The position numbers and the translations under genes are program-made. A DNA stretch of 64,000 nt from an uncultured Actinomycetota bacterium (GTDB taxonomy: Bacteria > Actinomycetota > Actinomycetes > Streptosporangiales > Streptosporangiaceae), in the NCBI GenBank assembly GCA_963816485.1, contig CAWFKU010000004.1:642454-706453 (forward strand), in the 5' to 3' direction. Below are positions 28,976 through 61,529 of this stretch, in pieces; positions within the stretch are counted from its first letter, which is position 1; the number at the start of each line of letters is the position of its first letter. The notes beneath the pieces were generated by a model that had not been told where the DNA came from, did not search any database, and saw nothing but the letters and a program-made list of their open reading frames with translations.

Positions 28976-29072
28976 GCCGCCTTAGCTCAGTCGGCAGAGC
29001 GGTTCACTCGTAATGAACAGGTCGTCGGTTCTCGTAATGAACAGGTCGTCGGTTCGATTCCGACAGGCGGCT
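28976..29072 (+). tRNA. tRNA-Thr (anticodon CGT) gene carrying a 24-nt internal tandem duplication (97 nt instead of 73)
   Basis: GCCGCCT TA GCTC AGTCGGCA GAGC G GTTCA CTCGTAA TGAAC AGGTC GTCGG TT [CTCGTAATGAACAGGTCGTCGGTT] CGATT CCGAC AGGCGGC T. Removing either 24-nt copy gives a canonical cloverleaf. Confidence 0.85.
29007..29054 (+). repeat. Perfect 2 x 24-bp tandem duplication inside tRNA-Thr
   Basis: ctcgtaatgaacaggtcgtcggtt at 29007-29030 and again at 29031-29054. The unit starts at the same base as the att direct repeat. Confidence 0.95.
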
Positions 29073-29073
29073 C
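29031..29073 (+). repeat. attL core (3' 43 nt of tRNA-Thr)
   Basis: ctcgtaatgaacaggtcgtcggttcgattccgacaggcggctc is identical to 51614-51656. Confidence 0.85.
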
Positions 29074-29130
29074 ACATTAGTACTGGCCACAGGAATATTT
29101 CGTTGCTACTTTCGTCATTGATCATCTTCC

Positions 29131-29154
29131 CGTGGACCGGGTCGTGGACCGGGT
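29131..29154 (+). repeat. Tandem 12-mers CGTGGACCGGGT x2, 58 nt downstream of the attL core (arm-type site candidate)
   Basis: Direct reading. The same offset and near-identical 12-mers are found after attR (51714). Confidence 0.7.
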
Positions 29155-29295
29155 CGCCTGATCGGCCGGCCGGGTGCCCTGATCGCCGGTCACTGACGGT
29201 GATGGCGACAGGTGGTGCGGTGCTCCTGGCTGGCAGGCGGGGGCTGCGATCGGGGAGCGCGACGCGAGAATTAGCCTTGTATGGGCTGGTTTCGG

Positions 29296-29800
29296 CTAGC
29301 CGTGCGGTCCCCTGGTTGCCTCTCGGCTGCCGGTGGCCTGGTGCGGCCGGATGGCTGTCGGACAGGCCGGTGACCCGTCAATGAGAAGCTCCTGCGGTAA
29401 CTCTGTTCTCCGGAGCCGGATACCCAGTGTTCGAGCAGTCGCCCGGTCACCTCGGCTCGGCAGGAGCGCGGCGACGATGCCCCTGCCGCGTGCGGCCATA
29501 CGGCTGATCCTGGTGGCGACTGCATCCAATCACCTGTCGCTGTCAACGCTGCGGGTCATGGTTTCGTCGGAGGACCACCGCTGTCTCCGGAATGGATCAT
29601 GGTGCCTATCTGCAGGCGCCACGAGCGGAAAGAGGCTGGTTTGGCCAGCTGCATTCCCACGGTCTCGCGCCCGTGATCGGCGAAGGTGATCATCACGGCG
29701 ACGGCGGCCGGGCCGTAGATCTTGACCCAGCGCACCCGAGCTGAACTGCTTGAGCAGAACGGCCGCGGAACGGTGATGGGTCATCTTGAACCTGCCGAGA
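29296..29800 (-). pseudogene. Possible heavily decayed DDE (rve-type) transposase/integrase remnant
   Basis: Pieces across three minus-strand frames read ITFADHGRETVGMQLA, TMIHSGDSGGP, ISRMAARGRG and AIRPHQ. They occur in the order expected for the D..(SR.vGw), HSD.G, SMSr.G and RPH motifs of IS3/IS481-like catalytic cores. This is motif-level resemblance only. Confidence 0.3.
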
Positions 29801-30054
29801 GAAGCGAATCCCCCAGTCAAGGAATGGCGGTGACCTGCTCGCCAGGAGCCAAGGTCCCCGGTACTGGCCCTGCCCTCGATCCCGGCTCGCCTGGCAAAGG
29901 GACGAGACCAAAGGGGCGGGCGGCCGGGACGTTGGGCTCTACCGGGCCGCGCGTCCGGCAGCCACGCTGGGGCGACTAGAGGGCGGTCGCTTCCCGGTCA
30001 CGGGAGCGGCTGCGCTATTGGCGCACCGATGCGAGTCGAAAGGCGGCGGTTCCG

Positions 30055-31267
30055 ATGAGGAGGCGCTCGGCGGCATTAGCGATCGGAAGGCTCGTCCGGG
30101 TGCTGCCCGTTGTCGTACTCGCCGCGGGCGTGGCGGCTGTCCCGGCGGCTGCGGGGGCAGTCGGCGCCGCAGCGGCGCCAGGCTCCGGTCACCGCGCGGC
30201 CGCTCCAAGCACGTTCCGCGGTACCTGGCGGCTGCTGCCGAGCGCACCGGTGACCAGTCTGCCGGCGTCGTGGGCGGTGTCCCATGCCTGGACCGGGCGG
30301 CACCTGATCGTGCACTATGCCCTGCTGGGCTCCTCGCAGGCTGGGAGCCGCGCCGTCACGTTCTCCTTTACCCCGGCCGGCAATGCCTGGGCGAAGCTCC
30401 CGGCCGGCCCGAAGCCCGTGCCTGCTCAAGGTGACGACGCCGCGGCGTGGACCGGATCCCGGATGCTCGTCTACGGACTGACGGGCGGAGCGTACTCGCC
30501 GGCCAGCAACACCTGGCAGCGCATCGCGCGGCCCGGCAGGCCGCCGAGCCAGATCAGCGGCTGGACCGGCAGCCGGCTGGTGGTCTGGGACGAGATCTGC
30601 TGCGGCATGACCGTCAACACCGCGGAGGTCTACAACCCGGCGGCCGATGCCTGGCACACGTCGACGTCGCCGCTGGACAAGCGGTCGGGCGCGATGGGTG
30701 CCTGGACCGGCAAGGAACTGGTCATCTTCGGCGGCTTTTCCGGCTTCCCGGCCGGAGGCAGGGTCTTCAGGGACGGCGCCGCGTACAACCCCGCGACGGA
30801 CACCTGGCGGCGGCTGCCGCCGATGCCGCAACGCCGCGGCGGCGGGACGGCGGTCTGGGACGGCAGGGAAGTGCTATTCCTCGGCGGCACGGGACCGGGG
30901 ACCAGCCAGCCTTCACTGCGCGGCATGGCATTTAACCCGGCGACCAACAACTGGCGGCTGCTGCCCGTTATGCAGTACCGGCGAGCCCGGCTTCGCGGCG
31001 GTGTGGACCGGTCGGGACGTCCTGGTGTGGGGCGGGCTGTCCGGGCATCTGGGCGCGTGGGTCGTCCCGCCGCACGGCGAGGCGTACAACCCGGCGGCCA
31101 ACCAGTGGAGTGCGCTGCCGAAGTCACCGTTGCAGGGCCGTGAGGTCGCCGTCGCCGTGTGGACGGACCGCCGGTTGATCGTCTGGGGCGGCTACATCCC
31201 GGGGCCAGGCCAGTCCGTGCAGCGGACCTTCCTCAACGGCGCCGCATTCACCCCGCGCCAGCCCTGA
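30055..31267 (+). pseudogene. Secreted Kelch-repeat protein, frameshifted near 30975-30990
   Basis: Signal-peptide-like N-terminus. Repeated W(T/D)G..(L/V)(V/I).(G)G ... YNPA(T/A)(D/N).W units. ORF 30055..31143 loses the repeat pattern after NNWRLLPVMQY. The pattern resumes in ORF 30647..31267 (EPGFAAVWTGRDVLVWGG...AYNPAANQWSALP). Confidence 0.7.
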
Positions 31268-31395
31268 CATTGCCGTCGGGCGCGGCCCTGGGCCGGAAAA
31301 GATTCGCGATGCACACGTACTCCGTCCGCGCCATCGTGGCACTGGCTCAGTACAGGCCGGACCTCGGGGTAGGACTGCGCGACGCTGGCCTACCG

Positions 31396-31564
31396 CGTCG
31401 CGACCGGAGCGCAGGTGTGGGTCGCGCGGTACAGCGGCCACGGCAGGGCGCGTGACACCGCCTTCGCGGTGGCCACCGGCTCTGGCGGCGGGGTGTTCGT
31501 CACCGGGAGCAGCGCCGTCTCGGCGTCGCAGGCCGGCTACGAGACCGTCGCCTACGGCGGCTAG
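31396..31564 (+). pseudogene. C-terminal fragment of an SBBP-type beta-propeller repeat protein
   Basis: The frame ending at TAG 31562-31564 reads ATGAQVWVARYSGHGRARDTAFAVATGSGGGVFVTGSS...YETVAYGG. It matches the repeat unit of the 33244-34669 gene, with no start codon or signal peptide. Confidence 0.55.
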
Positions 31565-31941
31565 TGGACCGGGCGGCCCGATGCATCGGCTGGGCGCCCT
31601 GATCGTCGGCCCGGTCATCAGGTGCGCCCTCGCTCCGGCTAGGTCCCGCGATCTCGTGGCACCGTGCCCGTCCCGAGTCCTTGTCCTGACCGGCAAGCGG
31701 CGCCGGTGGCCGATGGCCAGCCATGCCACCGAATGCCCATCCGGCGTCCCCGGAGCAGCACCCGAACGCGGCCGGCTGGCGGGGTGGCTGGTTGCGGGCA
31801 AGCGTTATCCCGGCGCTGCTGGAGGGCAGCCTTAAGTACCGAGTCATTGCACCACGCTTACGGCTCCGATCTGTGAGCACCAATGAACAGCCTGTCGTGA
31901 TCTCGGCACCAGGTGATTAGCAGACTTCTGGGAGCATCGAA

Positions 31942-31978
31942 AGCAGGAGGCCGGGCGGCTCGCTCCGGCCTCCTGCTT
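31942..31978. terminator. 13-bp GC-rich stem-loop
   Basis: AGCAGGAGGCCGG (31942-31954), 11-nt loop, CCGGCCTCCTGCT (31966-31978). It lies between gene remnants and the convergent epimerase gene. Confidence 0.4.
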
Positions 31979-32178
31979 GGTGCTGGCGATTAGCGGGCGT
32001 GCGTCTCACGCCCCCGGGTCAGCGCCCCCGGTGCGGTCGGCCAAGACCGGGAAGGACCTGCGTGCCCTCAGCCTGAACGGCGGGCCCCGCCGGCCTTCCT
32101 CGAGCCTCCCGAGCTGCCCGAGCCCAGCCTGACGTGGGGCACCTGGTAGTTCCTATCTGAGTAGGCGTGCGCCGTCGG

Positions 32179-33172
32179 TCATGGCGCGAGCCCGCCGCGC
32201 ACCGTGTCGCGCAGCGCCTCCAGCGCGGTGAACCGGGGCGACCAGCCGAGCAGCTCCCTTGCCCGGGTCGTGCTCATGATCGCTGGCCGGCTCACCGCCT
32301 CCGCCCAGCCGGCCACGCCCGGGAGGGCGGGTAGCGCGGTCAGCAGCCTCGCGGCGGCCTGCGCGGGAGCGGCGGGCAGCGGCACCGGCAGCAGCCCGAG
32401 CTCGCGGATGATGCCGGCCGGGGTGACGATGCCGTCGGCGGCGATGTTGTAGGCGCCGGGCGGCCCCGCGCCGACCGCGCAGAGCAGCAGCGCACTGCCG
32501 ACGTCCTGCTCGTGCACGAGCTGCAGAGGCAGCGCCGGCGCGGCGACGGCTAGCGAGATCGGCGGCCGGACCTGATCACGGCGTCGGCTAGGCGCCGGCC
32601 GAGCGGCACCAGCGCGCCGGGCAGCAAGTCCTTGGCCCCTACGCTGGCGCGGGCCGACCACGATGCACGGCCGGAGCAAGTAGAGCGCAGGCTGCCCGGG
32701 ACCGGCGGCCTCGGCGTTGAGCAACTGCTCGAGCTCAGCCTTCTGGCGCGCGTAGAACAACCGCGCCGCCGGCCGCACTGGCCACTCTTCGGTCATCTCG
32801 GCTGGATTGTCGCGATGGAATCCGTAGGCGGCGACCGACGAGGCGTAGACGAAGCGGCGGGCGCCTGCTGCCGCAGCAGCGCGGTACGCGTTCAGCGTCC
32901 CCTCGACATTGGTCTGCTCGATCTCTCCCGGTGGCTCTACGCCAGTGACCATGAACGCCAGGTGCACGACGACGTCGGCCCCGCGGAACGCGGCAGCCAG
33001 GGTCGTGGGGTCACGCACGTCGCCGCGCCGGTAGAGCAGTTTCGTCCAGCCGCGTGCCGCAGGATCGAACGGGCGCCTAGCCACGCCCGTCACCAGCCCG
33101 ATCCGGGAGTCGGCCTGAAGCAGCGGAATCAGGCCGAACCCGAACGTTGCCGGTCGGTCCGGTCACTGCCAC
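32179..33172 (-). pseudogene. NAD-dependent epimerase/dehydratase family gene with an N-terminal frameshift (and a probable internal out-of-frame stretch)
   Basis: ORF 32179..33093 carries DVVVHLAFMV, YASSVAAYG and YARQKAELE (YxxxK). The Rossmann N-terminus VAVTGPTGNV(G)FGLIPLL lies upstream (to GTG 33172) in another frame. Residues around 32550-32640 read better in an alternate frame (GAKDLLPGALVPLGRRLADAV). Confidence 0.6.
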
Positions 33173-33243
33173 GGCCTTTCGCCGGGCGTTACGTGCAAAG
33201 GTTGAGGCGAATTACGAACGCTCGAAGGTGAGGGGATCACGCA

Positions 33244-34669
33244 ATGCGCGGAACCATGAGGCATGCGTGCGCCGCGATAGCGGCGGTCGCGACGCTCGGC
33301 GGGCTCGGAGTCCTCGGGGCCGGGGCCGCCAGCGCGGCTGGAACCGCCAGTCCGGCAACGGCCCTCTCGGCGGCTGTTGGGGGCGCTCGGCTGTGGGTGA
33401 GCCGCTACGACGGCCCGGGCCACGGCTTCGACGGCGCCAGCGCGGTGGCGGTGACCGGGGGTGGCCGTAAGGTGTTCGTGACGGGAACCAGCGGGCGCAT
33501 GGCCGCCACGATCGGCTACGACGCCTCCACTGGCGCGCGGCTGTGGGTCAAGCGGTACGGCGGGCCCGGTGACCGCGGAGCCAACGGCGAGGCGGTCGCG
33601 GTTAGCCCGGATGGCGGCACGGTGTTCATGGCCGGGTTCAGTTCCGGTGCCACCTCACGCGATGACTACGTCACGATCGCGTACAACGCCGCAACCGGGG
33701 GGCGGCGCGGCGGCGCACTACAACGGCTCGGCCAGCAACGGCGATGAGGCATTCGCCCTGGCGGTCTCACCGGACGGCAAGACCCTGTTCGTCACCGGGC
33801 AGAGCGCCGGCGTCGGCTCAGGCGCCGACTACGCCACGATCGCCTACAGCACGGCCACCGGCGCGCGCCTGTGGGCGGCGCGGTACAACGGCCCCGGCAA
33901 CAGCTACGACACCGCGAGGTCCCTGGCGATCGGGCCTGGCGGCCACAGAGTATTCGTGACGGGGTTCAGCACGGGGGCGAGTACTGCCGGGCAGTACGCC
34001 ACGGTCGCCTACGACGCTGCCTCCGGCAGGCAGCTCTGGGTGCGGCGGAGCCCTGGCCCGGGCCTCGCCTTCGCTTCATCGGTTGCGGTCGGTCCGGGCG
34101 GCGGCCGGGTGTACGTCACCGAGACCAGCGGCATCACCGCCGCGACCCTGGCCTACGACGCGGTCAGCGGAGCGCGGCTGTGGGCCACGCGGTATCGGGG
34201 CCAGGACTCCCGGGGTGCCTTCGCCGCCAAGGTGGCCGTCAGCCCGGACGGCGACACGGTATACGTCGCCGCCACGTCCGGACAGGTGGTCAGCGACGAC
34301 TACGCCACCATCGCCTACAACGCCAGCACCGGTGCGCGAAAGTGGCTCCGGCTCTACAACGGTCCCGGCAACAGCGTGGACGACGCGACCGCCCTGGCCG
34401 TCAGCCCGAGCGGCACGGTCTACGTCACCGGCGCGAGCAGCAGCGGCAGCGCGACCGCGACTGACTACGCCACGGTCGCCTACAGCGCCGCTGGCCGGCA
34501 ACTATGGGTTGGCCGATACAACGGCCCGGCCAACGGCGAAGACCACCCAGCCGCGATCACAGTCAGCTCGGCAGGCAGCCGAGTGTTCGTCACCGGCCAG
34601 AGCCTCGGCGCCACGACCTCCGGCCACAACGCCGGCTTCGACTACGCCACCGTCGCCTACTCCGGCTAG
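33244..34669 (+). pseudogene. Secreted SBBP-like beta-propeller repeat protein, disrupted near 33697-33715
   Basis: Signal peptide MRGTMRHACAAIAAVATLGGLGVLGAGAASA. About 9 repeats of DYATIAY(N/S/D)A.TGARLW..RYNGPGNS.D.A.A.AVSPDG..V(F/Y)VTG.S. ORF 33244..33747 and ORF 33569..34669 are the two halves. The junction repeat lacks the LW residues, which suggests a small out-of-frame deletion in a G-run. Confidence 0.7.
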
Positions 34670-34994
34670 CCCATCCGCGACCTCGGCCACCCAAGAGCAG
34701 GCTGGCGACATCCTTTACACGGCCACCGCCACACGGCGCCAGTTCTGGGCCGTGGGCAGCTAGTTCTCATCGTCGCGAGGAAAGACCGTCACAATGCGCC
34801 GCTGCCAGCCGTAACACCACCGTTCCGAGCCTTTGCCGGATCGGCCGCCGAAGGGGCCCCGGCTGATGGCCGGCCAGGCGGTCAGGGCGAGAGAACATCG
34901 CCTGAGCTGGCTTGGCGCCGCCGCCACCAAGCCCGCGCCGTCACTGCCAGTACCAGCGGCGACGAGAACGAGTTCACTAAGTGCGGCTGCCGTA

Positions 34995-36377
34995 TTAGTG
35001 GTGGCGCAGCCAGACGCCGAAGTCCTGTCCCGCGTTAGAGAGGACTGAGGCGTCCGCCACGACCGCCCCGGCATGGGTACCGTCGGTGGTGTCAATCCAC
35101 CGGCTGGTGGCCCAGGGGCCGAGGATGCTGCCATGGCCGCCGCGGTAGGTGGTGGCTTTGCTGCCGGTGAACTGCCATATCTGAGTGTCCGCCGGTGGCG
35201 GGCTCATGGTGCTGTTGTCGAACATCGCGAGCACTTCGGCTGAGTTCAGCGGCATCTGAGCGGCATATGGCGCGGCCACCGTGACGGTCTGGCTGGTTCC
35301 CCTGGTGGGATCGCTGACGGTGAAGGCGTAGTGGCCGTTCCGGTCGTAGTAGATGCTGACCGCCAGCTGGTCACCGGGCGCGGGGTTCACAGCGAACGTG
35401 CCCTGAGCCGCGTTGGAGGCGAAGCTGATGCTGCCCGCGCCGCCGCCGGGAAGGACCTCGATGTCCGCGTACGGCCGCGGGGTCGGCCCGCCGTTGTGGC
35501 CGAGGCTGACCAGCGCCGTGCCGCCGTTGGCGGCCGGTGCCTGCGCTGGGGGCACCGTCATGGTCGTGGCGATATACCGGAAGGGGCCCGCGCTGTCTGA
35601 GTAGCCGGCGAAACCCGAGGTGTAGGTCAGCGGCAGCGCACGCAGCCAGACGCCGAAGTTCGCCCCGCCCTTCGACAGTCCGGACGGGCTCCTGACCACC
35701 GCGCCCGTAGAGGTGCCGGTGCTGGTCTGGATCAGCTGCCTGGTTTGCCACGGGCCGGTCACCGTGCCGCGGGTGCCGCTGTAAGTGGTCAGCCGTGCGC
35801 CAGTTACCTGCCATAGCCGCGTGTCGGCGGTTGGAGGCGGCACCGGCCCGCCACCCGCGTTGCCGGATAGCGAGGCCACGTTATAGACGGCTTTGCCGGT
35901 CTTGACCCGCACGGTGCGGGTGACGTCCTGGGTAACATCCACGGCGGTGAAGTAGATATGGCTGTTGCGGTCGTAGTAGATGCTGACCCGGAGCCGATCA
36001 CCGGTCTTCGGGTTCATCGCGAGTGGGGTCAGTATCTGGCCATCGCCCCATCCGACGGTGCCGGAACCGCCGCCAGGACGAACCACGATGCTGAAGGGCG
36101 GACTCATGGGCGCGGCGTTTCGCAGCGTCATGATCATCTGGCAGAAATAGCTCTGGGACGGGATGACCTGCGGGACGGTCACCGTGGCCTCGACGTACCG
36201 GAACCACCGCCCCGTGGACACGTAACCCGCATCGTTAGTGGTGTAGACCGACGGGCCCAGCGACCCCAGGGCCGCGATAGCCGGGGACGCAGCCCCGGCA
36301 AAGCCGAGAGTGACGGACGTCATGCCCGCCGCTGCTGTGGCATACAGCGCGTGGGTGAAGTGGCTGCGCATCGACAA
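34995..36377 (-). CDS. Secreted protein made of two homologous ~200-aa domains (G1 glutamic-peptidase / concanavalin-like fold suspected)
   Basis: Signal-like N-terminus. The two halves align: AGYVSTGRWFRYVEATVTVPQ...DRLRVSIYYDRNSHIYFTAVD...RLWQVTGARLTTYSG...FGVWLR versus AGYSDSAGPFRYIATTMTVPP...DQLAVSIYYDRNGHYAFTVSD...QIWQFTGSKATTYRG...FGVWLRHH. The fold guess is weak. Confidence 0.7.
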   Translation of the reverse strand: MSMRSHFTHALYATAAAGMTSVTLGFAGAASPAIAALGSLGPSVYTTNDAGYVSTGRWFRYVEATVTVPQVIPSQSYFCQMIMTLRNAAPMSPPFSIVVRPGGGSGTVGWGDGQILTPLAMNPKTGDRLRVSIYYDRNSHIYFTAVDVTQDVTRTVRVKTGKAVYNVASLSGNAGGGPVPPPTADTRLWQVTGARLTTYSGTRGTVTGPWQTRQLIQTSTGTSTGAVVRSPSGLSKGGANFGVWLRALPLTYTSGFAGYSDSAGPFRYIATTMTVPPAQAPAANGGTALVSLGHNGGPTPRPYADIEVLPGGGAGSISFASNAAQGTFAVNPAPGDQLAVSIYYDRNGHYAFTVSDPTRGTSQTVTVAAPYAAQMPLNSAEVLAMFDNSTMSPPPADTQIWQFTGSKATTYRGGHGSILGPWATSRWIDTTDGTHAGAVVADASVLSNAGQDFGVWLRHH

Positions 36378-36925
36378 GACCTCCTGCCGTGCAGCCCAGG
36401 GCCGGATAACCGTGGCCTATTATCAACAATGGCCCCGTGGCCGGTCCCAGGCCCAATCCTCGGTTGCTCCGCATTCTGCTGGCCGCTGGTACGCCAAGTC
36501 GGGAGTAGGACGTCACTCCAGTGACCACCCAGCAATTTGATTTTCCCGAGATCCCAGACCATCAGGGCAGGGCCATTCGGCCTGTCGGCCACGGCAGACG
36601 ACTCCCGTGAGGGCCGGATACGCACGAGAGAACGACCAGACAGAGCAATAACTGCTGGAGGCATCACCGGAACTCATAGATCAGCGCGTAGCAGGTCGCG
36701 CCCGGCGGGTCGACCGAAAAGACGCTACTGCGATCGCGGTCAGCGCTCATGCGCCGTCTCTGGCTGGAACGCGGAGATGTGCCAGGCGGGCCAGTGACTC
36801 ATGACCGGGTCCAGCCGGCTGTTGCCGACCGGGCGGATCGTTGCGTGTGCATGGCTCGGGCGCTGCCAGAGCGGGGAAGTGGGTCGCCGGGATGCCCGGG
36901 ACTGCGTTCGGGCTGGGCTACCCGG

Positions 36926-37236
36926 GAGCTTGCGGAACTCAGCCGTGGTCAGGGTCGCCCTGGTGATCGAGGCCAGGGTTCCGCGCTTGATCGTGCCGTG
37001 CTCAGAAACCACGGCCGCCCCGCCCTCGGCGTCGCGGTCGACGGCGTGGCTTCCCTTAACCCGCGCCCTCGAAGCCTGCGACCCGCGGTCCGCGACATCG
37101 CGGACCGGCAGGTCCGACAGCGCCGGACTGAGGCAGCAGGCAGCGCGGACGAGGCCCACCAGCGGCGTGCTGAAGACATAGAGCGCCGGGTCGTCCGCTT
37201 CATCCAGGTAGAGTCCGACGGCCTCCGCAAGGCTGG
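36926..37236 (-). pseudogene. Decayed hicB-hicA toxin-antitoxin remnant (paralog of 50923-51365)
   Basis: SLAEAVGLYLDEADDPALYVFSTPLVG..SPALSDLPVRDVA...VKGSHAV.RDAEGGAAVV...GTIKRGTLASITRATLTTAEFRKL. It parallels the intact pair (SLAEAVGLYLDEVDDPERYVSSTPLV / SPALSDLPGRDVA..VKGSHAVYGDADGRVAVVPGLGTIKRGTLASILRRAGLTTDEFLKL). The HicB N-terminus is missing, there is an internal shift, and the stop codon is lost. Confidence 0.65.
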
Positions 37237-37283
37237 GCCTTGTGGCTGGCCGTCGTGGTCACCGTGCGGATTGCCGCACCTAA

Positions 37284-37715
37284 TCACCCGGCCGGTTTCC
37301 ACGCGGGATAAAACGCGGACCAGAAACCTGATGCTGTCGGGTACCTGGTGATCCACGGGGCGCGGTGCAGGCCGCGAACCGCCGCCTCCGCGTACGGAGA
37401 CGGCTGCCGGGTCCCGGCTGCCGAGGGAGCGCCGATGATCTGCTTGCTGCCGATCCGCCGCCACGGGCCTGCGAAGCCGCCGCCGATGAGCTTGGCCCAC
37501 AGCCCGTCGCGGTAGCCGTGGATCAGGATCGATCCGCCGTTGCTCTCCGGGATGTAAGCGATCGCCGGCGCATTCCTGGTATGACCGCCGACCGACGTCC
37601 ACCGCCAGTGCGCGAATGAGGACGTCGTCCGGACGCCGTGGTCGGTCCATCCGGCCGCGACCTCCCTCCGCCTCGCTGCGCAGCCCTCCCTTCCCTGGGC
37701 TCGCAATAACCCCAC
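37284..37715 (-). pseudogene. Fragment of a beta-propeller (PLL/DUF346-like repeat) protein
   Basis: WTSVGGHTRNAPAIAY....SILIHGYRDGLWAKL...GPWRRIGSKQIIGAPSAAG has the W..(I/V)GG....AP...(V/I)..(G).DG.LW periodicity. High GC3, but only about 1.5 repeats and no credible start. Confidence 0.3.
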
Positions 37716-38013
37716 CGTTCCGCGACCGCAGGTGACCTGTCACCACCTGCCCGTCGGTGTCAACCTAGAGAAACGGCCGTAGGGTCGGCCGGGGAGGCCC
37801 GGGCAAGAGGGCTCTCCGAGCGGGTAATGATCAGTGGCCGTGTTCAGGCAGCCACCGGCCCGTCCTGGCTGCGGCGTCCACCTAGGTGAATTCGGGCGGT
37901 AGGTGATGACAGGTCACCTGCCGGGGTGTGAGCCTAAGATCGCGATGCAGCGGCCGGGTAACGGCTGCGGCGGAGTCGATGAACCGCCTGGCAAGGGATG
38001 CCAGTGAAACTGG

Positions 38014-40291: not shown

Positions 40292-40293
40292 TG

Positions 40294-44300: not shown

Positions 44301-44416
44301 CGCGCCTGGGCCAGGCCCGGCAACGCGCCGGCGAGCGTGGCCGCCGGCGGCACAGGACCGACCAGGGCGGCGGCGCCCGGGTCAAGCCAGCTCGGCAGCG
44401 TCTGGACCGCGCTCAT
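41337..44416 (-). pseudogene. Fusion oxidoreductase: degenerate NuoF/RnfC-like N-domain + GltD-like (4Fe-4S + FAD/NAD(P)) + C-terminal 2x[4Fe-4S] ferredoxin. Reading frame broken once near 42955
   Basis: ORF 42689..44632 (ATG 44416) ends in out-of-frame text after GKRIGIAGS. ORF 41337..43109 continues with PAGLTAAYYLRTFGHEVEILEEQEKAGGMLRYGIPAYRLP..., IVVGGGNVAIDVA, VYAGGD, then CLRCDVCIGCGLC and CIGCGACTQVCP. One missing base in ggctcggcccagcc (expected GSGPAG) restores a single ~1026-aa ORF. This is either a genuine frameshift or a homopolymer sequencing error. Confidence 0.75.
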
Positions 44417-44940
44417 GGCGAGGTGTCCTCGCCGCCCGGCGGCTCGGCGAGGATGTGCCGGGCGTAGCGCTCGCGGCGCGGGTCCGGCAGCTCGTTGGCC
44501 TCGCCGAAGGACAGGCAACCGGTCACGCACTTGGTGACGCAGGCGGGCTGCAGCCCGGCGTCGAGCCGGTCCATGCAGTAATCGCACTTGACCACCTTGT
44601 TCGTGGCGGGGTCCCACTGCGGAGTGCCCCACGGACAGGCCGCGATACAGCTCTTGCAGCCGATGCAGAGGCTGTCCTCGACAAACACGATGCCGTCCTT
44701 CTCACGTTTTTGCATCGCGCCGGTCGGGCACGCCCGGACGCACCACGGGTCTTCGCAGTGGAAGCACGGCATGAACACGAAGCGGGTCAGGGGCAGTCCG
44801 TCGGCCTCGACCGGTTCCAGCGCGATGACCCGGCACGGATCGGGGCCGGGACCGAGCTGCTTGTTGGTCTTGCAATGGACTTCGCAGGCCAGGCACCCGA
44901 TGCAGTTGGCCTCGTCGTGGCGAAGCTCGTATTTGCTCAT
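44413..44940 (-). CDS. 4Fe-4S dicluster subunit (DmsB/PsrB-like electron-transfer subunit)
   Basis: CIGCLACEVHC, CFHCEDPWCVRACP, CIGCKSCIAACP, CDYC...CVTKC. ATGA-type overlaps with both neighbours. Confidence 0.85.
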   Translation of the reverse strand: MSKYELRHDEANCIGCLACEVHCKTNKQLGPGPDPCRVIALEPVEADGLPLTRFVFMPCFHCEDPWCVRACPTGAMQKREKDGIVFVEDSLCIGCKSCIAACPWGTPQWDPATNKVVKCDYCMDRLDAGLQPACVTKCVTGCLSFGEANELPDPRRERYARHILAEPPGGEDTSP

Positions 44941-47090
44941 CCGGCTGCTCCTTCCGGTGTCCGGCGCCTCACCTGCACGACCGTCTCGGTCAGCGCATTG
45001 CCGCCGCCGGCGGGATCGAAGTCGTAGAGCTTGCCGTGCTGCAGGCGCTGGTCGGCGACGCCGAGGCCGCGGGCGCGGGTGGCGAGTGGCACCGTGGCGC
45101 CGTAGCCGTGCAACATGAACACCGCGTCGGGATGGATCCAGCGGGTGACCTTCGCCGGCAGGCAGCCGGTGTAGCGGCCACCGCCGTTGACCTCCACCTC
45201 GTCGCCGTCGGCGATCCCGAGCGCCGCGGCACGGTCGGGGTGGATCCAGAGCACCTGTTTGGGTGCTCTCTCGTTGAGCAGGGGATTGTTGAGCGACTGG
45301 CCCTGCGCGAGCGTCGCCGTCTTCGCGAACAGCAGCGTGAACTTCTCGCCCGTCGGCGCATCTTTGGGGACGTACGCCGGCAGGCTCTCAAGCCCGGCCT
45401 GCTTGAGGACCTCGCTCTCGATCTCGATCTTCCCTGAGGGCGTCGGGAACGTGAGCTCGTCGCGGGGGATCAGTTTCGGAGCCGCCGCCAAGCCGACCAG
45501 GCCGGCCTCGCGCATCTTCGAGACGGTGACGCCGGTGCCATCGAGCTGGTAATTCCACAGCTCCTCGATGGTCTCGAAGTCAAGCGCCTGTCTGATGCCC
45601 ATCCGGTGCAGGATCTCGCGGAAGATCCACCACGCCGGGCGGCTGTCGAAGCGCGGTGCGATCGCCTGGTCGCGCATGGCGAAGACCGGCACCGGGCCGT
45701 TCATCTGGCAGAGGATGTTCGCGCGCTCCAGGTAGGTCGACTCGGGGAGGATGACGTCGGCGAACCAGCCCAGTTCCGAGTAGCGCACGTCGATCGAGAC
45801 GAGCAGCTTCAGCTTCTCGATCGCCCGTTGCGTCGCCTCCGGGTCGGGCATGCCGGTGAACGGGTCGTGGCGGTAGGCGAAGTAGGCGCCGATCCCGTAC
45901 GGCTGCCCCGTCTCCATCGCGGCGAAGGCCTGATGCAGCATGCCGATCGCCGGATCCCATTGCGGCCGCTTGCCGCCAGCGCCATCCACGCGCGGCTCCC
46001 TGACCTCCGGCACCCGATCTATCAGATGGTTCAAGCCCTTGCGGCCGTAGTGCTCGGGCGGCTTCCCCAGCACGCATCCACCCGGAAGCTCGATGTTGCC
46101 CATCAGCGCGTTCAGGATCAGCGCCGACCGGCTCACGTAAAACGACTGCTTGTGACGAGCTGACATCCACCCCGGATGGAAGATCACATGTGGTGCGTCC
46201 GCAGCGATCTCGGTCACGAACGCGCGAAGCTCGGCGGCGGGAACGCCGGTGTGCGGCTCCTGCCACTCCGGCGTTGTGTCCTTAACCGCCTCCCGCAGGT
46301 AGTCCAGGCCGGAGACGAAACGGGCGACGAAGTCCTTGTCGTAGGCATCCTGCCTCAGGACCTCATGGATTATGGCGAGGTTCAGCGCGTAGTCGCTCTT
46401 CGGTCGCACCTGCCAGTAGCGGGTGGCCTTGGACGCCGTGATCGTGGCGCGCGGATCGATGTAGGTGCAGCGCATCCCCCTCGCCACCGCGGCCATGAAC
46501 GCCTTAGCCTCCTTGACCATCAGCGATTCGACGACATTGCGGCCGTAGAGCACGAGATGCTTGCAGTGCTGGTAGTCGAACAAGAGCCCTGCGGCGCCGA
46601 AGCCGTAGAGCGAGCGTGTGGCGTTATGAACATTGCCGGCGCAAGCGGCATCGTGATCGAAGTAGTTCGGCGAGCCAAGCGCCCGAACGAAGGTCTGGGT
46701 CAGGTCAGTAAAGGGGCCGCCACGATCGGAAAGCGCGATACCGCGCCCGCCGAAGACATCGATCGTCTCAGTCAGCTTCTCGGCGATGTAGTCGAGGGCC
46801 TCGTCCCAGGACACCCGCCGCCACTGGCCGCCGCCACGCTCGCCAGCACGGATCAGCGGCGCCTGCGGCCGCTCGTCGTCAGACTCCAGAAACAGGCCGG
46901 CCGCGCCCTTCGCGCACAGGCTGGCGCCGAGGGCCCGGTCGTGCGTATTGCCCTGCAGCCAGGTCACACGGCCGTCCTCGACCGTCACCTCCATCGGGCA
47001 ACGCACCGCGCACATGCCGCACATGCTGTAGACCGTGCGCCGGCCTGGAGCACCCACGCCGCTTACGTTCGGTGCCATAGGGGAAGTCAT
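44937..47090 (-). CDS. Molybdopterin (bis-PGD) oxidoreductase catalytic subunit, cytoplasmic (no Tat signal), substrate unknown
   Basis: ATG 47090 after GGAG. The N-terminal FS0 motif is CGMCAVRC...CAKG. A candidate Mo-ligand Cys is in FDHDAACAGNVHNATRSLYG. The C-terminal beta-barrel region reads LWIHPDRAAALGIADGDEVEV. No RRxF(L/V)K twin-arginine motif upstream. Confidence 0.85.
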   Translation of the reverse strand: MTSPMAPNVSGVGAPGRRTVYSMCGMCAVRCPMEVTVEDGRVTWLQGNTHDRALGASLCAKGAAGLFLESDDERPQAPLIRAGERGGGQWRRVSWDEALDYIAEKLTETIDVFGGRGIALSDRGGPFTDLTQTFVRALGSPNYFDHDAACAGNVHNATRSLYGFGAAGLLFDYQHCKHLVLYGRNVVESLMVKEAKAFMAAVARGMRCTYIDPRATITASKATRYWQVRPKSDYALNLAIIHEVLRQDAYDKDFVARFVSGLDYLREAVKDTTPEWQEPHTGVPAAELRAFVTEIAADAPHVIFHPGWMSARHKQSFYVSRSALILNALMGNIELPGGCVLGKPPEHYGRKGLNHLIDRVPEVREPRVDGAGGKRPQWDPAIGMLHQAFAAMETGQPYGIGAYFAYRHDPFTGMPDPEATQRAIEKLKLLVSIDVRYSELGWFADVILPESTYLERANILCQMNGPVPVFAMRDQAIAPRFDSRPAWWIFREILHRMGIRQALDFETIEELWNYQLDGTGVTVSKMREAGLVGLAAAPKLIPRDELTFPTPSGKIEIESEVLKQAGLESLPAYVPKDAPTGEKFTLLFAKTATLAQGQSLNNPLLNERAPKQVLWIHPDRAAALGIADGDEVEVNGGGRYTGCLPAKVTRWIHPDAVFMLHGYGATVPLATRARGLGVADQRLQHGKLYDFDPAGGGNALTETVVQVRRRTPEGAAG

Positions 47091-47636
47091 CGCAATCTCC
47101 GTCCCCGCGCCGCCATTGGCGTCAGGCCTCCGGGCCGCGCGGCGCTTGGCTGGCGGTGTACTTGTCCTCGCATCGATCGATCGTGGCACCCTCCCGGAAT
47201 GGCAGGCAGGGCCGTAGCGCCTGCTCCAAGGGGACCAATGGCCTCGCGAGGACCGGGGCGGCGAGGCAGCCGGGTAGGCGGGGGACTGTGCATCCGCGAC
47301 AGGGCGTCGGCACGCCCAGGGTCGTCGCCGTCGGCGGCGGCAATATCGTCGAGGCTTGGGCTTCGAAATCATGGTGGCCGAGGCCGAGGTGGCCGAGGAC
47401 GCGGGCGCCACTCAGTAAGCCCAGGCTCCCTTCAGGCACCCGATGAGCCGGGAGATCGCCGGCTCCCCAGGTCGCCGATCTCGTGGCCGGACCGCAGGTC
47501 CTTGACCAGGAGTATGGCCGTCCGATCTGGGCATCGACAACACCGGGCACTAGGAGGAGGTACCTATCCCGGCCGACGTCAACAGCACGCTGCAGACCGG
47601 CGGCGACGTGCCAGTGGAGGAAGCTGGCGGCATGTA

Positions 47637-48944
47637 ATGTCTTTCTCGCCAACTTCCAGCAAAAGGGGCCTGGCAGTGGATACTGGCCTTGCGCTTGTCG
47701 GTCTGACGCTGCTGCTCGTCGCCGCGGTATCCCGACCTCTGTCGAGCACGCCCATCACGCCCGCGATCGTGGTGGTCGCGGTCGGTGTTCTGGTCGGCCC
47801 GCTCGTGCTTAACGACCTGACGGTGCGACCCACGAGCTCGACGGTGCAGACACTCGCCGACGCGACGCTCGCGGTGGTGCTGTTCTCGGATTCCTCGCGC
47901 GTGAACCTGCGGGCGCTGCGGCGTGAGGCGTCGATGCCTGTCCGCTTGCTTGGCCTCGGTCTGCCGCTGACGATCGTGCTGGGTGGGCTGATCGCGGTTG
48001 CCCTGTTCGGCTCGTTCTCGATCAGCGAGGCGCTGATCCTTGGCGTGATCCTCGCTCCGACCGACGCCGGGCTTGGTAGCGCGGTCGTCACGGACACGAG
48101 GCTTCCGCAAGTTGTTCGGCAGTCGCTGAACGTCGAGAGCGGCCTGAACGACGGGATCTGCGTCCCGCTGCTGTTGATCGTGCTGGCTACCGTCTCCGGC
48201 GCTGGCAGCGAGTCCCACCCGTTGCGGGTGCTCGCCGAGGAGATCGGCTACGGGCTGCTCGGCGGGCTCGCTGCTGGCGCGCTCGCCGCGGCGGTTGTGA
48301 TCCTTGCCGGACGACGGCACTTGATCGACGATGCTTGGCGGCAGATCATTCCGTTGTCCTCAGCGGTGCTCGCGTACGGGATCGCGAACGCCCTGGGCGG
48401 TTCGGGATTCATCGCCGCGTTCGTAGCCGGCGCACTGTTCGGCCTGCTCGCTGGCGACCGAGCCGCGGGAATGATGCCCTTCACGGAGGAAGCCGGGGCC
48501 GCGCTCGACAACGTTACGTTCCTCGTGTTCGGTGCCGTGCTGCTCGGCCCGGCGTTCGAGCATATGAGCTGGCAGATCGCGCTGTATGCCGTGCTGAGCC
48601 TCACGGTCGTGCGGATGTTGCCGGTGGCGATCTCGCTGTGGGGCACTCACGCGCGGGTTCCGACGGTCGCGTTCATTGGCTGGTTTGGCCCGCGCGGGCT
48701 TGCGTCGATCGTGTTCGCGGTGATCGTCGAGGACGCGCATCTCCCTCACGCCGGGACGATCGTCGCGGTCAGCTACCTGACCGTCGGGCTGTCGGTCCTA
48801 GTACACGGGCTTTCGGCCGCGCCGCTGGTAAGTCGCTATGCCAGCTGGTACCAAGCCGCCGCGGAGAAGAGCCCTCCTGTGATGGAGAGCCAGCCAGCGC
48901 ACGAGCACCGGGCGCGGGGATCCGCCGCGGTGCCGAGCAGGTGA
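47637..48944 (+). CDS. Cation:proton antiporter (CPA1, Na+/H+ exchanger family)
   Basis: C-terminal part of ORF 46176..48944. ATG 47637 (or GTG 47676). LILGVILAPTDAGLG, SGLNDGICVPLL, WFGPRGLASIVFA. About 12 TM segments. Confidence 0.8.
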   Translation: MSFSPTSSKRGLAVDTGLALVGLTLLLVAAVSRPLSSTPITPAIVVVAVGVLVGPLVLNDLTVRPTSSTVQTLADATLAVVLFSDSSRVNLRALRREASMPVRLLGLGLPLTIVLGGLIAVALFGSFSISEALILGVILAPTDAGLGSAVVTDTRLPQVVRQSLNVESGLNDGICVPLLLIVLATVSGAGSESHPLRVLAEEIGYGLLGGLAAGALAAAVVILAGRRHLIDDAWRQIIPLSSAVLAYGIANALGGSGFIAAFVAGALFGLLAGDRAAGMMPFTEEAGAALDNVTFLVFGAVLLGPAFEHMSWQIALYAVLSLTVVRMLPVAISLWGTHARVPTVAFIGWFGPRGLASIVFAVIVEDAHLPHAGTIVAVSYLTVGLSVLVHGLSAAPLVSRYASWYQAAAEKSPPVMESQPAHEHRARGSAAVPSR

Positions 48945-49376
48945 CCGCTGGCCTAGGCCAGTAGCGGGTCGGCCATCATAGACAGCCATTCTCGGCGGCG
49001 CGGTTGGAGGTGACCACGGTCGAGGACCAGGACGGAACACTTTCTGCGGCTTCCTGGAACTGGCTCGCGACAACCTCGTGCAGCTGCGCACCGGGCACGC
49101 GTGCACGCTCGACGACATCGCCCGCGACCGCGCCGGCCGCGGTGAGGCGCTGACAGATGAGGTGCAGGTCATGCGCGAGATGGTCATTCGCCTGTACCCG
49201 CGCTGGGCACGTCTCATCACTGGTACCAGCCCATTGGCCATCACCGCATACGGCGCGGCCCGCGTCGCCCGGCGGTGTGGTCGCCGGGTGAGCACCTGGT
49301 GATCGACTGGGCGCACAGGGCGGGCGGGCTGGTGTTCTGCGCCCGCGGGTGCGGCAGCAGAAGCGAAGGCAATACG

Positions 49377-49475
49377 AAGGTCTTGACGGTGTATGCGCAC
49401 CACCACCCGCGGTCGTTCTGCCATGGCGTACTGGAATGGTTCACCGACGGCTTGCAGCGGGCCGGTCACACCAGC
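49377..49475 (+). pseudogene. N-terminal fragment of a flavodoxin-like-fold NAD(P)H oxidoreductase, start codon apparently ACG
   Basis: KVLTVYAHHHPRSFCHGVLEWFTDGLQRAGH matches the M-KVL-VYAHPEPRSF-N..L......L..AGH opening of this family. The codon before K is ACG, 5 nt after GAAGG. Family similarity stops after about 32 aa. Confidence 0.4.
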
Positions 49476-49901
49476 GGCGCGTCACGTCCGGGCATCGCGC
49501 AAGCCGTGATCCCAGGAGGCCTGGACGCCGAATCCGGGGCAGCCAACCATGTTGAGGAATCGGTGTCTGCCGCGCTGACCACCCGCGCGACGTGGCCTCC
49601 AGCCGGGATGACGACGGCCCTGTCGCTTCATAAGACCAGACGGCCGCCCGGCATGAGGGTCATCTACGCTCGTCCTGGCCGGTCCGTGCCAGCCTGGAAG
49701 CGGCGGTGAGAATGCCGGTCGCCTGGCGCGTCACCCCCAGCCAGTACCACATCCAGCCGCTTCGCCGGCGCGACCGCGCCAGCGCACCAGCCGGCTTGAC
49801 CAGGACGCTGGTTAAGGGCGGCAATGCAACCGGCCAGGAGGTTGCCGGCGCAGCCGCGTCAGCGGCGCCGCCTTGGTCGGCGCCGGGATCCGGGCCGCGC
49901 C

Positions 49902-50174
49902 CTAGCAGCGGGCTCGCTCGTGAGGCATCGAGCTGAGGTGCTCATCGAGCGCCGCCACGCCGTTGGCTAGCGCGGAGTGCGGCCCGCGGAGCTTCTGAAG
50001 CTCGGGCGACACCTGGTCGTAATTCAGGTTCGGGTCGTCGCCGCAGACCGGGCAGATGACCTCGTACTTGCCCGTGTAGCCGACCGATGTACGGCCATCG
50101 ACCACGCGGGCCGGCTGCGCTCGCAGAAACACGCCGTCGTGGTGCCCGGCGGCCCGATGACTGACATCCCCCAT
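49902..50174 (-). CDS. Small hypothetical protein
   Basis: MGDVSHRAAGHHDGVFLRAQPARVVDGRTSVGYTGKYEVICPVCGDDPNLNYDQVSPELQKLRGPHSALANGVAALDEHL. Protein-like composition. I recognise no family. Confidence 0.45.
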   Translation of the reverse strand: MGDVSHRAAGHHDGVFLRAQPARVVDGRTSVGYTGKYEVICPVCGDDPNLNYDQVSPELQKLRGPHSALANGVAALDEHLSSMPHERARC

Positions 50175-50922
50175 GCCGCCATTCTGCAGCGCGAGCCGCC
50201 CGCAGCAGGAATGGGCCAGATGAACACTAGGAGACAATCAGGCGCAATGCCGCCGAACTCCCGGCGCTCATGCCGGACCGGTAGGTCGCCGCCTGCCTGG
50301 CGCTCGCCCGTCCCATCGGTCGCGCGTCCGACCGTTTGAGTAAGTGATCGTGGCGGGTCACGGGGCCCGGACTCCTCCGTTCGAAGTAGACCGTGGACGC
50401 TTGCGGCCGCCTGGTTTCCGCCCGAAGCGTCCAGCAGCAGAACGCGTCCGAGGGCATGGCCGCCGAGATCGTGCCCGGCCAGGCTCGGATCATCGTGACG
50501 CAACCACGAACGACAACGCAAGGGAGACGGCGCGAGAACTGGCCGTTCCGTTGCCCTCACCCGCCGCGAATTTCGTCATCGGCCAGCCAATGCACGGTCC
50601 GGGGCGCTCCGGGCTGATTAACCGTATGGGTGCCGATCCGCCGGAGCTATCACACGCCGTCACCAGCGCTTCCGTGTGCTTGACGCGCCGGACCCGCCGT
50701 TCTGGGCGGCAACCCGGTCGCTGGCGTGGCGGCTCGTGGTGCGCCCGAACGGGTGGAGCTGTGGCGGCCAGGCGCGCAGCGGGCGCAGCTGACCGACGCG
50801 CTTTTCTGGTGACCGGATGTTATGCCGGGCTTGACGGTCGGGCTGAGGGCTCGCTGGTGGGTGCCGCGGATGGCGAGCTGGCGACAGGGGTCGCCGGAAT
50901 GCCCGGGACTGCCTAGGCTGCG

Positions 50923-51147
50923 CTAGTCGAGGAGCTTGAGGAACTCATCCGTGGTCAGGCCCGCCCGCCGCAAGATCGAGGCCAGGGTCCCACGCTTGAT
51001 CGTGCCGAGCCCGGGAACCACGGCCACCCTCCCGTCGGCATCGCCGTAGACGGCGTGGCTTCCCTTGACCCGCACCCGCTCGAAGCCCGCGGCCCGCAGG
51101 GCGCGCGCCACGTCGCGGCCCGGCAGGTCCGACAGCGCCGGGCTCAC
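50923..51147 (-). CDS. hicA: Type II toxin-antitoxin system HicA family toxin
   Basis: GTG start overlapping the hicB stop. SPALSDLPGRDVARALRAAGFERVRVKGSHAVYGDADGRVAVVPGLGTIKRGTLASILRRAGLTTDEFLKLL (YcfA/HicA pattern). Confidence 0.85.
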   Translation of the reverse strand: MSPALSDLPGRDVARALRAAGFERVRVKGSHAVYGDADGRVAVVPGLGTIKRGTLASILRRAGLTTDEFLKLLD

Positions 51148-51365
51148 GCAGCAGGCAGCGCGAACGAGGTGACCAGCGGCGTGCTGGAGACGTATCGCTC
51201 CGGGTCGTCGACTTCATCGAGGTAAAGCCCGACCGCCTCCGCGAGGCTCGCGAGCGCCTCATCGATGGTCCGGCCCTGGCTGGCGACATCGACCTCCAGG
51301 CACTGGGCCACGTACCAGTCCTCTTCCCGGTGCACTGCGGCAGTCAGGGTCCGCGACTCGGCCAT
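51144..51365 (-). CDS. hicB: Type II toxin-antitoxin system HicB family antitoxin
   Basis: LTAAVHREEDWYVAQCLEVDVASQGRTIDEALASLAEAVGLYLDE is the typical HicB N-domain. It lies immediately upstream of hicA. Confidence 0.8.
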   Translation of the reverse strand: MAESRTLTAAVHREEDWYVAQCLEVDVASQGRTIDEALASLAEAVGLYLDEVDDPERYVSSTPLVTSFALPAA

Positions 51366-51500
51366 GAGCTCAGCCTAACCCAGGCAGGCCCGAGCTCGTT
51401 TGGGCTGTCGGGCCAGCCCGGAACGCCGAGCGCCCCAGCACCCGGACCTGCACCTTGACTACTGGCGGTTACCTGGTCAGGCCAGGCCGGCTGGCGGGCG

Positions 51501-51524
51501 CGTGGAACGGGTCGTGGACCGGGC
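51501..51524 (+). repeat. Tandem 12-mers CGTGGAACGGGT CGTGGACCGGGC, 90 nt upstream of the attR core (arm-type site candidate)
   Basis: Direct reading. Same family as 29131-29154 and 51714-51749. Confidence 0.65.
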
Positions 51525-51613
51525 GGAGTGCTCAACGGGTGCATCGTGTGCATTCTGTGCGTTCGGGCGTGCTATCTGTGCAGCTAGCGCGTCTGGTGCT
51601 GGCGGGCGTGTTT

Positions 51614-51656
51614 CTCGTAATGAACAGGTCGTCGGTTCGATTCCGACAGGCGGCTC
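51614..51656 (+). repeat. attR core: orphan copy of the 3' 43 nt of tRNA-Thr(CGT)
   Basis: ctcgtaatgaacaggtcgtcggttcgattccgacaggcggctc is identical to 29031-29073. No tRNA 5' half precedes it. Confidence 0.9.
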
Positions 51657-61528: not shown

Positions 61529-61529
61529 C

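Follow-up and report, generated by a model that had tools for sequence, protein, structure and literature searches.

What lies between two perfect copies of a tRNA 3' end, and is it a single element? The question is raised by a 64,000-nt stretch of contig CAWFKU010000004.1 (assembly GCA_963816485.1, positions 642,454 to 706,453 of the forward strand) from an uncultured member of the Streptosporangiaceae, hereafter called the window, in which a 43-bp repeat of the end of a tRNA-Thr(CGU) gene encloses 22.5 kb. A first-pass annotation, made from the sequence alone, saw there one immobilised element between a left and a right attachment (att) site, attL and attR. We suggest that the window probably holds a tandem array resembling cis-mobilizable elements (CIMEs), made of integrase-less and partly decayed units of one att family which came together at tRNA-Thr(CGU) by accretion and decay. 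Loci and contigs used in the comparison are cited by number (L001 and so on).

Attachment sites and their family

The 43-mer CTCGTAATGAACAGGTCGTCGGTTCGATTCCGACAGGCGGCTC is present in exactly two copies in the window (29031–29073 and 51614–51656), both on the plus strand and with 0 mismatches, as first described; the number expected by chance is 0, and 100 dinucleotide-preserving shuffles yielded 0 matches. Identity runs 2 nt (TT) further to the left, giving 45 bp. The left copy lies inside a tRNA call (28976–29072/3; Rfam tRNA, 60.5 bits), the right one indeed has no tRNA 5' half, and the shared core spans tRNA-Thr(CGU) from the first anticodon-loop nucleotide to the 3' end. Near the cores stand pairs of arm-type direct repeats, CGTGGAMCG N3 CGTGGAMCG, of which the window has three where 0.1 are expected: the pairs at 29131 and 51714 follow the starts of the left and right cores by 100 bp each, and the pair at 51501 precedes the right core by 113 bp. 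With arm repeats at fixed distances in ~80 metagenome contigs and in several genomes of relatives as well, the signature of integration into a tRNA 3' end stands. The parts of the two sites, with O for the core and P and P' for the arms, are as follows.

28976–29073, plus strand: tRNA-Thr(CGU) gene with a 24-bp tandem duplication, 98 nt; 5' part 28976–29006, truncated core 29007–29030, full 43-bp core (O of attL) 29031–29073
29074–29177, plus strand: P' arm of the left site (attL), arm-type pair CGTGGACCGGGTCGTGGACCG at 29131–29151, 100 bp from the core start (nhmmer P' profile, E 2.9e-31)
51455–51613, plus strand: P arm, 159 bp, arm-type pair CGTGGAACGGGTCGTGGACCG at 51501–51521, 113 bp upstream of the core (nhmmer, E 3.9e-74)
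51614–51656, plus strand: second full 43-bp core (O), without the tRNA 5' half, P on its left and P' on its right
51657–52168, plus strand: non-coding P' module, 512 bp, right of the second core, arm-type pair CGTGGAACGATTCGTGGAACG at 51714–51734 (nhmmer P' profile, 298 positions, E 1.9e-77)

Profiles built from the contigs match 29031–29219 as P' and 51371–51656 as P arm, and the whole P' profile is recovered at 51614–51907; these are the only matches in the window. The edges of these modules are shared with other contigs: blastn similarity of the left P' arm to the P' arms of 12 contigs stops at 29173–29177, and the P arm has its left boundary at 51455–51456 in ~25 contigs. The P' module at 51657–52168 has counterparts in four contigs, with 85–87% identity over ~560 bp; of the five modules compared, four (window, L156, L113 and L100) diverge at the same nucleotide (...GTACGGCTC|), the fifth (L150) stopping ~25 bp further. 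The last six bases of the module are also the end of the tRNA core (CGGCTC). Judged by its arms, the right 43-bp copy looks like a complete P-O-P' site, and thus like an internal junction of a tandem array that continues rightwards, not like the plain attR first proposed; because it is a P-O-P' junction, the array would not be closed at 51656. The CGTGGAMCG pairs presumably serve a tyrosine integrase, provided in trans, as its arm-type sites, and the site so defined (a P arm of ~159 bp, the 43-bp core and a P' arm of at least 100 bp) is a candidate for trans-mobilisation. Further degenerate copies of core, P or P' were not found near 37.2 kb or in 52–64 kb (nhmmer, E below 10). A minus-strand open reading frame (ORF) across the junction (51477–52058) was rejected as a gene: what is conserved there is the nucleotide sequence, indel lengths are not divisible by three, and GC content shows no signal by codon position.

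A metagenome scan with the last four P-arm bases plus the start of the core returned 80 contigs. The repeat pair stands exactly 113 bp upstream of the core in ~70 of them, ~25 also have the pair at +100 and are P-O-P' junctions, and several carry two junctions 3.8–13.5 kb apart. Across 51 distinct contigs conservation is 96–100% in the core (96% in its unconstrained part) and ~95–100% in the repeat pair, falling to ~85% in the rest of the P arm and ~50% beyond -160. Twelve fully bounded, non-redundant units could be delimited, 1.5–22.6 kb in size, the window's being the largest; eight of them end in the window-type P arm, and seven of these eight have no integrase. At the small end, L002 and L003 have a 1.5–1.7-kb stretch between an intact tRNA and a partial core copy starting at the same nucleotide; the CGTGGAMCG pair recurs in the P' arms of both, and the P arm of L002 is homologous to 51455–51613. 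Small units consisting only of a toxin-antitoxin (TA) module lie between tRNA and P-O in L002, L003 and L132. A Pfam census of 150 representative ORFs around junctions gave 161 families, with beta-propeller proteins, regulators, transporters and PIN/HTH pairs as the commonest and only 2 integrase ORFs; the 25 top-ranking families included none of Rep or Tra type. No integrase adjoins the CGTGGAMCG arm type in ~160 loci. The integrase of L096 was considered as the cognate one, its unit ending in a window-type P arm, and was rejected on its own P' repeat, which differs (GGCGACT); this unit is probably chimeric. Viral contigs scanned for the P-arm/core junction gave 0 matches, and plasmid and phage collections searched with the 1.3-kb junction module matched in the core region only (37–48 bp), P and P' arms and hicAB remaining unmatched.

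Probable units between and beyond the repeats

Directly to the left of the P arm lies a TA module, hicAB, whose two genes are full length and overlap by 4 nt, in agreement with the earlier description of it as intact at the right edge. HicA matches Pfam HicA_toxin (4e-14) and the upstream 73-aa HicB-like protein matches DUF7387 (2e-7); full-length amino-acid identity in 10–12 contigs is 81–92% for HicA and 85–99% for HicB. By these matches it is predicted to be a full-length HicAB type II TA system, and NCBIfam added nothing for hicAB or for the ORFs without a family. The hicAB-P-O module has a left boundary (50875–50877) common to at least eight contigs, different from the ~25 in which the P arm is shared by itself. 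The exact HicB protein is encoded on five other contigs, one of them the 1.46-Mb contig L165. At 2330–10471 (window orientation) L165 carries an 8.1-kb integrase-less unit between two junctions, with trypsin-like, Usp, Zip and cation-efflux genes and a hicAB end, and it is this terminal hicAB that encodes the HicB identical to the window's.

A second copy of hicA-hicB, hicAB', lies at 36751–37234. It is ~85% identical to the module at 50875–51260, with indels of 1, 2 and 4 nt, and keeps the left module boundary of the family, and its similarity to every relative stops at 37232–37234, inside hicB. We read hicAB' as the left part of a former hicAB-P-O junction, the rest of which would have been deleted, and hence as a scar between two units, E1a and E1b. 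Because the truncated copy marks a deleted junction, the 22.5 kb would consist of at least two fused units. This scar, together with an operon that is conserved in the lineage and lies elsewhere in relatives, speaks against the view of one immobilised 22.5-kb element. Just upstream of the CMD gene and to the right of the scar there is a 24-nt inverted repeat (37728–37751 and 37898–37921), 92% complementary, its halves 146 nt apart. The contents of the units are listed below, with strand where one applies.

29178–36750: cargo of unit E1a (Pfam, frame plot, repeat families D1–D9)
30055–31267, plus strand: Kelch-repeat gene, split by a frameshift
32179–33093, minus strand: epimerase-like gene
33244–34669, plus strand: beta-propeller repeat gene, split by a frameshift
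34995–36377, minus strand: peptidase A4 gene
36751–37234, minus strand: hicAB', truncated hicA-hicB pseudo-copy (repeat families D5, D10, D11, D20)
37235–50874: cargo of unit E1b (Pfam and NCBIfam): CMD gene, conserved block, then four ORFs without a family match
37928–38353, plus strand: CMD-family gene
39368–48946: conserved block with genes for an SGL lactonase, a glucose dehydrogenase-like protein, a Fer4_20/Pyr_redox_2/Fer4 flavoprotein, a Fer4_11 protein and a PhsA-like molybdenum (Mo) oxidoreductase (all minus strand) and a Na+/H+ exchanger (plus strand)
50875–51454, minus strand: intact hicAB module (hicA 50923–51147, hicB-like gene 51144–51365)
52169–59441: probable further unit E2, with PAP2, three BON-domain genes, HSP20, DoxX and DUF308 (Pfam) and a decayed vapBC at its end
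58901–59441: decayed vapBC, antitoxin and PIN toxin genes both frameshifted

Propeller cargo like that of E1a is also present in related contigs. The 9.6-kb Mo-oxidoreductase and Na+/H+ exchanger block of E1b aligns with L161 at 88.9% nucleotide identity over 7752 bp (39368–47094) and at 83% over 1276 bp in the exchanger, and no core, P or P' was found in the 8 and 4.4 kb of fetched flank on the two sides of the L161 block. The flanks of the operon differ again in other relatives, and the oxidoreductase has hundreds of homologues of 77–92% identity on large contigs. In L161 a group II intron maturase fragment (GIIM, 18289–18603) adjoins the operon, the surroundings of which are therefore in flux there too.

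The first-pass annotation had described many genes between the repeats as broken, which is overstated. Against L161 the 7.7-kb operon shows 8 indels, of which 7 are multiples of three and one is a 1-nt deletion in a G run, splitting the gene of the 1030-aa flavoprotein near 42957. Nor are frameshifts confined to the island, as a penicillin amidase gene outside it (10547–12980) is split into two frames at ~12269, with Pfam positions 1–496 and 496–675 on overlapping ORFs; a similarly split gene is seen in the assembly of a relative. The broken genes are not separable from assembly indels and are not island-specific. The proposed comparison of k-mer composition did not discriminate the island either, tetranucleotide correlation being 0.95–0.99 everywhere and GC 0.67–0.73 throughout.

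The absence of a recombinase, replication or conjugation gene between the repeats was borne out, and the proposed search for recombinase remnants found none. Pfam scans of the main ORFs between the repeats gave no integrase, excisionase, replication or transfer domain; tblastn with three integrases of the lineage and RepSA had no match in the window; and profiles of 15 integrases and of 6 RepSA proteins from relatives, run against all window ORFs of at least 25 aa, reached best E values of 1.4 and 1.5, respectively. There is thus no integrase anywhere in the 64 kb.

To the right of the P' module follows E2. Its terminal vapBC is 76–81% identical at the nucleotide level to a TA module which adjoins the P arm in L132 and the core in L095, and after it no P arm or core was found up to 64000. 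E2 would then be a third, decayed unit whose right junction has been lost. The three BON-domain paralogues with HSP20, DoxX and DUF308 (53936–58810) are followed by an AI-2E transporter fused to BON domains (59969–61528), and the cluster looks like a stress or envelope gene set.

The tRNA-Thr gene as a hotspot

To the left of the array the gene order is topA, a fusion of a major facilitator superfamily (MFS) transporter with thymidylate kinase (tmk), holB, PSP1 and the tRNA gene; the fusion is a single 730-aa ORF (24469–26658) between topA and holB. A scan for PSP1, with one genome per species, returned 80 loci, mostly from Streptosporangiaceae or Trebonia-like metagenome-assembled genomes (MAGs), with a best identity of 90%. 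holB and PSP1 are kept in these loci; relatives have an intact 74-nt tRNA-Thr(CGU) gene after PSP1 and then unrelated DNA, and synteny ends at the tRNA, so that the conserved block does end at attL as first stated. In none of the 80 relatives do the first 10 kb downstream of the tRNA hold an island gene or a gene of 51657–64000, and the DNA there is hypervariable. Directly after the tRNA there are tyrosine integrases in ~20 of the 80 and a pSAM2-type RepSA in 6. From this hypervariable DNA with its integrases and RepSA we conclude that tRNA-Thr(CGU) downstream of PSP1 is a genuine, lineage-wide integration hotspot in this group of soil actinomycetes; tRNA hotspots are known for actinomycete integrative elements (PMC2440964). 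The comparison for an empty site, proposed with the first annotation, succeeded in part: relatives have the intact tRNA with other DNA after it, and an exact empty site was not among them. In L148, the closest relative, the tRNA is followed at once by a P'2-like arm, and there are 4.1 kb where the window has 22.5 kb. Every integrase lineage at the tRNA-Thr (L001, L005, L042, L083, L094, L096, L128) has a P'-arm direct-repeat pair of its own, 50–70 bp after the core (CGTAGCAGTTT x2, GGGGAGCC x2, GTGACTAA-like and GGCGACT x2).

The tRNA gene of the window was not regenerated in canonical form. A third, partial core copy, the first 24 nt of the repeat (CTCGTAATGAACAGGTCGTCGGTT), stands in tandem at 29007–29030, directly upstream of the left core, so that the gene is 98 nt long where 74 nt would be expected; this extra copy also accounts for the ARAGORN label 'tRNA-His', which is a miscall. 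Deleting one 24-nt unit leaves a 74-nt sequence 100% identical to the gene found 30–60 bp after PSP1 in the closest relatives, which ARAGORN calls tRNA-Thr(cgt) and which has no duplication, and the duplication junction is absent from all ~160 related loci checked. The Rfam alignment places the additional 24 nt in the variable region, the score still being 60.5 bits, and in the minimum-free-energy fold the acceptor, anticodon and T arms are retained and a 4-bp hairpin is added. As a side possibility, the 98-nt tRNA-Thr with its extra arm might be expressed and functional.

The duplication consists of a core cut after the second T-loop base and fused to a complete core exactly at the P/O boundary, with TT common to both partners. 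Replication slippage between the two CGGTTC repeats of the tRNA would give a unit of 26 nt, not the 24 nt observed, and for this reason we favour a scar of illegitimate deletion or aberrant recombination at a former junction, such as the loss of an earlier first unit. A comparable deletion is seen in L003 (12426–12694), where a C-terminal integrase fragment runs straight into the final 13 nt of a P arm, with a core copy after them, so that the deletion ends 13 nt from the P/O boundary. The duplicated gene would be a natural accident of an att site, in which the cell may have lost a tRNA, though not necessarily.

Proposed accretion and decay, and other explanations

In the reading we favour, accretion followed by decay, a unit of this family would begin with the P' arm and end with a TA module (here hicAB), the 159-bp P arm and the 43-bp core. 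Units would enter one after another by tyrosine-integrase recombination, which we place in the anticodon loop since the first base of that loop is where identity begins; newer units would lie nearer the tRNA, P-O-P' junctions would be left between them, and later deletions would remove parts of units and other junctions. E1a (29074–37234) and E1b (37235–51613) would thus have been fused by a deletion running from inside hicB' at 37234, and the right repeat would be the junction between E1 and E2. TA modules beside P arms could persist since selection acts against their loss. Both ends of E1 have a perfect core and intact arm repeats, so that a cognate integrase in trans may still be able to excise it, which is why we call E1 CIME-like and not dead. 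The order of accretion, the fusion by deletion, the preservation by TA modules and the status of E1 as a substrate for an integrase in trans are what we infer from the layout.

A single 22.5-kb element which integrated once and lost its integrase later, with 29031–29073 as attL and 51614–51656 as plain attR at the native chromosome, would account for the perfect repeat, for the P' arm at the left and the P arm at the right, and for the lack of any island gene downstream of the tRNA in the 80 relatives. We consider it very unlikely, however, as hicAB' lies inside with the family's left boundary kept and a cut in hicB, as the DNA to the right of the right copy is a P' arm of element type, arm repeats included, and not unique chromosome, and as the 9.6-kb block is syntenic with the chromosome of a relative, with no att site in the fetched flanks. 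It is possible, although we think it unlikely, that the 22.5 kb is at present neither one element nor several: the att copies would be old, vertically inherited scars that have ceased to bound anything mobile, and after an ancient integration the DNA between the tRNA and the old hicAB-P-O scar would have been refilled and reshuffled by ordinary insertions, deletions and rearrangements, among them the transfer of an operon from elsewhere in the chromosome. This operon is conserved in the lineage and evolves under purifying selection, 7 of 8 indels being in frame, and shares the composition of the chromosomal core; the junction modules are 85–92% identical among contigs, similar to the divergence of coding DNA between relatives; and integrases are nearly absent near these sites. 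Set against this are the core copy outside the tRNA, still matching at 43 of 43 positions, the conservation of cores (96–100%) and arm pairs (~95–100%) next to DNA at ~50%, identical module boundaries beside unrelated DNA in many contigs, and units that vary in number and size among near relatives such as L148. Conserved cores and arms, sharp boundaries and variable units together argue for continuing site-specific exchange.

Least probable of all is an assembly artefact, in which the second core copy or the 24-bp duplication came from a misassembled att repeat. The closest relatives are MAGs, so that the window is probably a metagenome-type assembly, frameshifts are met both within the island and beyond it (one at a G run), and the duplication junction is unique among ~160 loci. 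The P-O-P' context of the right copy nevertheless recurs in dozens of independent contigs, and a 24-bp tandem duplication would be atypical of a homopolymer or collapse error.

Several observations weigh against accretion and decay all the same. The E1b operon is 83–89% identical to the L161 chromosome, where no att site lies in 4–8 kb of fetched flank, and its composition is indistinguishable from that of the chromosomal core (tetranucleotide r 0.987); it may never have been mobile cargo. The P' module at 51657–52168 could be an old, lineage-fixed remnant acting as chromosomal flank, and L148 does have a P'2-like arm directly after the tRNA. No close strain with a true empty site for E1 was found, the window holds no right end of E2, and what speaks for the origin of the tRNA duplication is confined to a 2-nt microhomology and the coincidence of a boundary. 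Finally, the cognate integrase was not found, the integrases near these sites in relatives having other types of arm repeat.

A further proposal, which we regard as quite improbable, is that the units with CGTGGAMCG arms are not the debris of once-autonomous elements but a non-autonomous cassette system. Integrase-less segments of any content, from 1.5 to more than 20 kb, would each carry a TA and P-O-P' module of ~0.3–1.3 kb, and a trans-acting tyrosine integrase would shuffle and stack them at tRNA-Thr(CGU) in soil Streptosporangiales-like bacteria, chromosomal operons being open to capture. Compatible with this are the seven of eight bounded units without an integrase, the failure of any integrase to adjoin this arm type in ~160 loci, the near-invariant cores and arm repeats, and the sharp module boundaries beside unrelated DNA. 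If true, the system would be a tRNA-anchored analogue of integron cassette arrays.

Returning to accretion and decay, the locus matches known genome islands formed in this way, with some unusual details, and does not overturn current concepts. Both the definition of CIMEs and the accretion model are established (PMC5704250). E1 is flanked by att sites and has no recombination or transfer genes, as CIMEs do, its mobilisation being a prediction from sequence; as to derivation by decay, scars are present (hicAB' cut at 37234, the decayed vapBC, the duplicated core) and no remnant of a gene of an integrative and conjugative element (ICE) or its actinomycete form (AICE) was found. CIMEs and tandem accretion have been described in islands of Streptococcus thermophilus related to ICESt1 and ICESt3 (Pavlovic 2004; Bellanger 2011; both as cited in PMC5704250). 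Like these, the window keeps att sites without integration or transfer genes, in tandem at one target gene with att junctions between, and suggests a history of integration, decay and further integration. Unlike the S. thermophilus CIMEs, it has the stretch from anticodon loop to 3' end of a tRNA-Thr as its target, in an actinomycete host, its units consistently end in a TA module beside the P arm, and no ICE or AICE sharing its arm repeats could be found as a parent, nor any integrase-bearing member with them in ~160 loci.

In Streptomyces avermitilis, AICESav3728 and AICESav3708 share a single tRNA-Arg gene, where they stand in tandem and are separated by a 44-bp att site; remnants of AICEs are known as well (PMC2440964). 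Actinomycete host, integration at a tRNA 3' end, a tRNA-derived att copy of ~43–44 bp between tandem elements and decayed remnants are common to these and the window. The S. avermitilis AICEs carry int, xis, rep and tra, whereas the window has none of these; of the genes that mark an AICE (int/xis; RepSA, RepAM or Prim-Pol; an FtsK/SpoIIIE-type transfer gene) it holds none. Measured against elements integrated at tRNA 3' ends, it has the direct repeat at both ends and the arm-type repeats, to which an integrase would bind, and it lacks an internal integrase and a P-O-B' right end with an empty site. An attL/attR-like repeat is misleading here: the second repeat is internal, and the enclosed DNA consists of fused units including a lineage-conserved operon, so that island boundaries called from tRNA-fragment repeats alone would misjudge extent and history.

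TA cassettes stabilise chromosomal integron arrays and genomic islands. In the window, likewise, TA modules persist among dispensable DNA, and TA-only units exist in the family (L002, L003, L132). Unlike integron cassettes, the site is tRNA-derived with arms and not an attC, and units of 1.5–22.6 kb may hold operons; unlike integrons, there is no platform integrase beside the primary site. The features of an integron-like array (platform integrase, attC-type sites, mostly single promoterless ORFs) are accordingly not those of this locus. What the locus shows instead is a hotspot at tRNA-Thr(CGU), in soil actinomycetes that are mostly uncultured, where TA-anchored, integrase-less units accumulate. 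A TA system is cited as maintaining the genomic island SGI1 (in PMC5704250).

The tRNA-Thr 3' part serves as an attachment core elsewhere too. A tRNA-Thr gene is the integration target of pSE101 from Saccharopolyspora erythraea (PMC2440964), and in our collection search the tRNA-Thr 3' end was also met in Mycobacterium prophiT36-2b, Microbacterium phage vB_MoxS-R1 and plasmids of Tsukamurella and Paenarthrobacter; the window is like all of these in its attachment core, and differs from the phages and plasmids outside it, the match being limited to the 37–48-bp core region.

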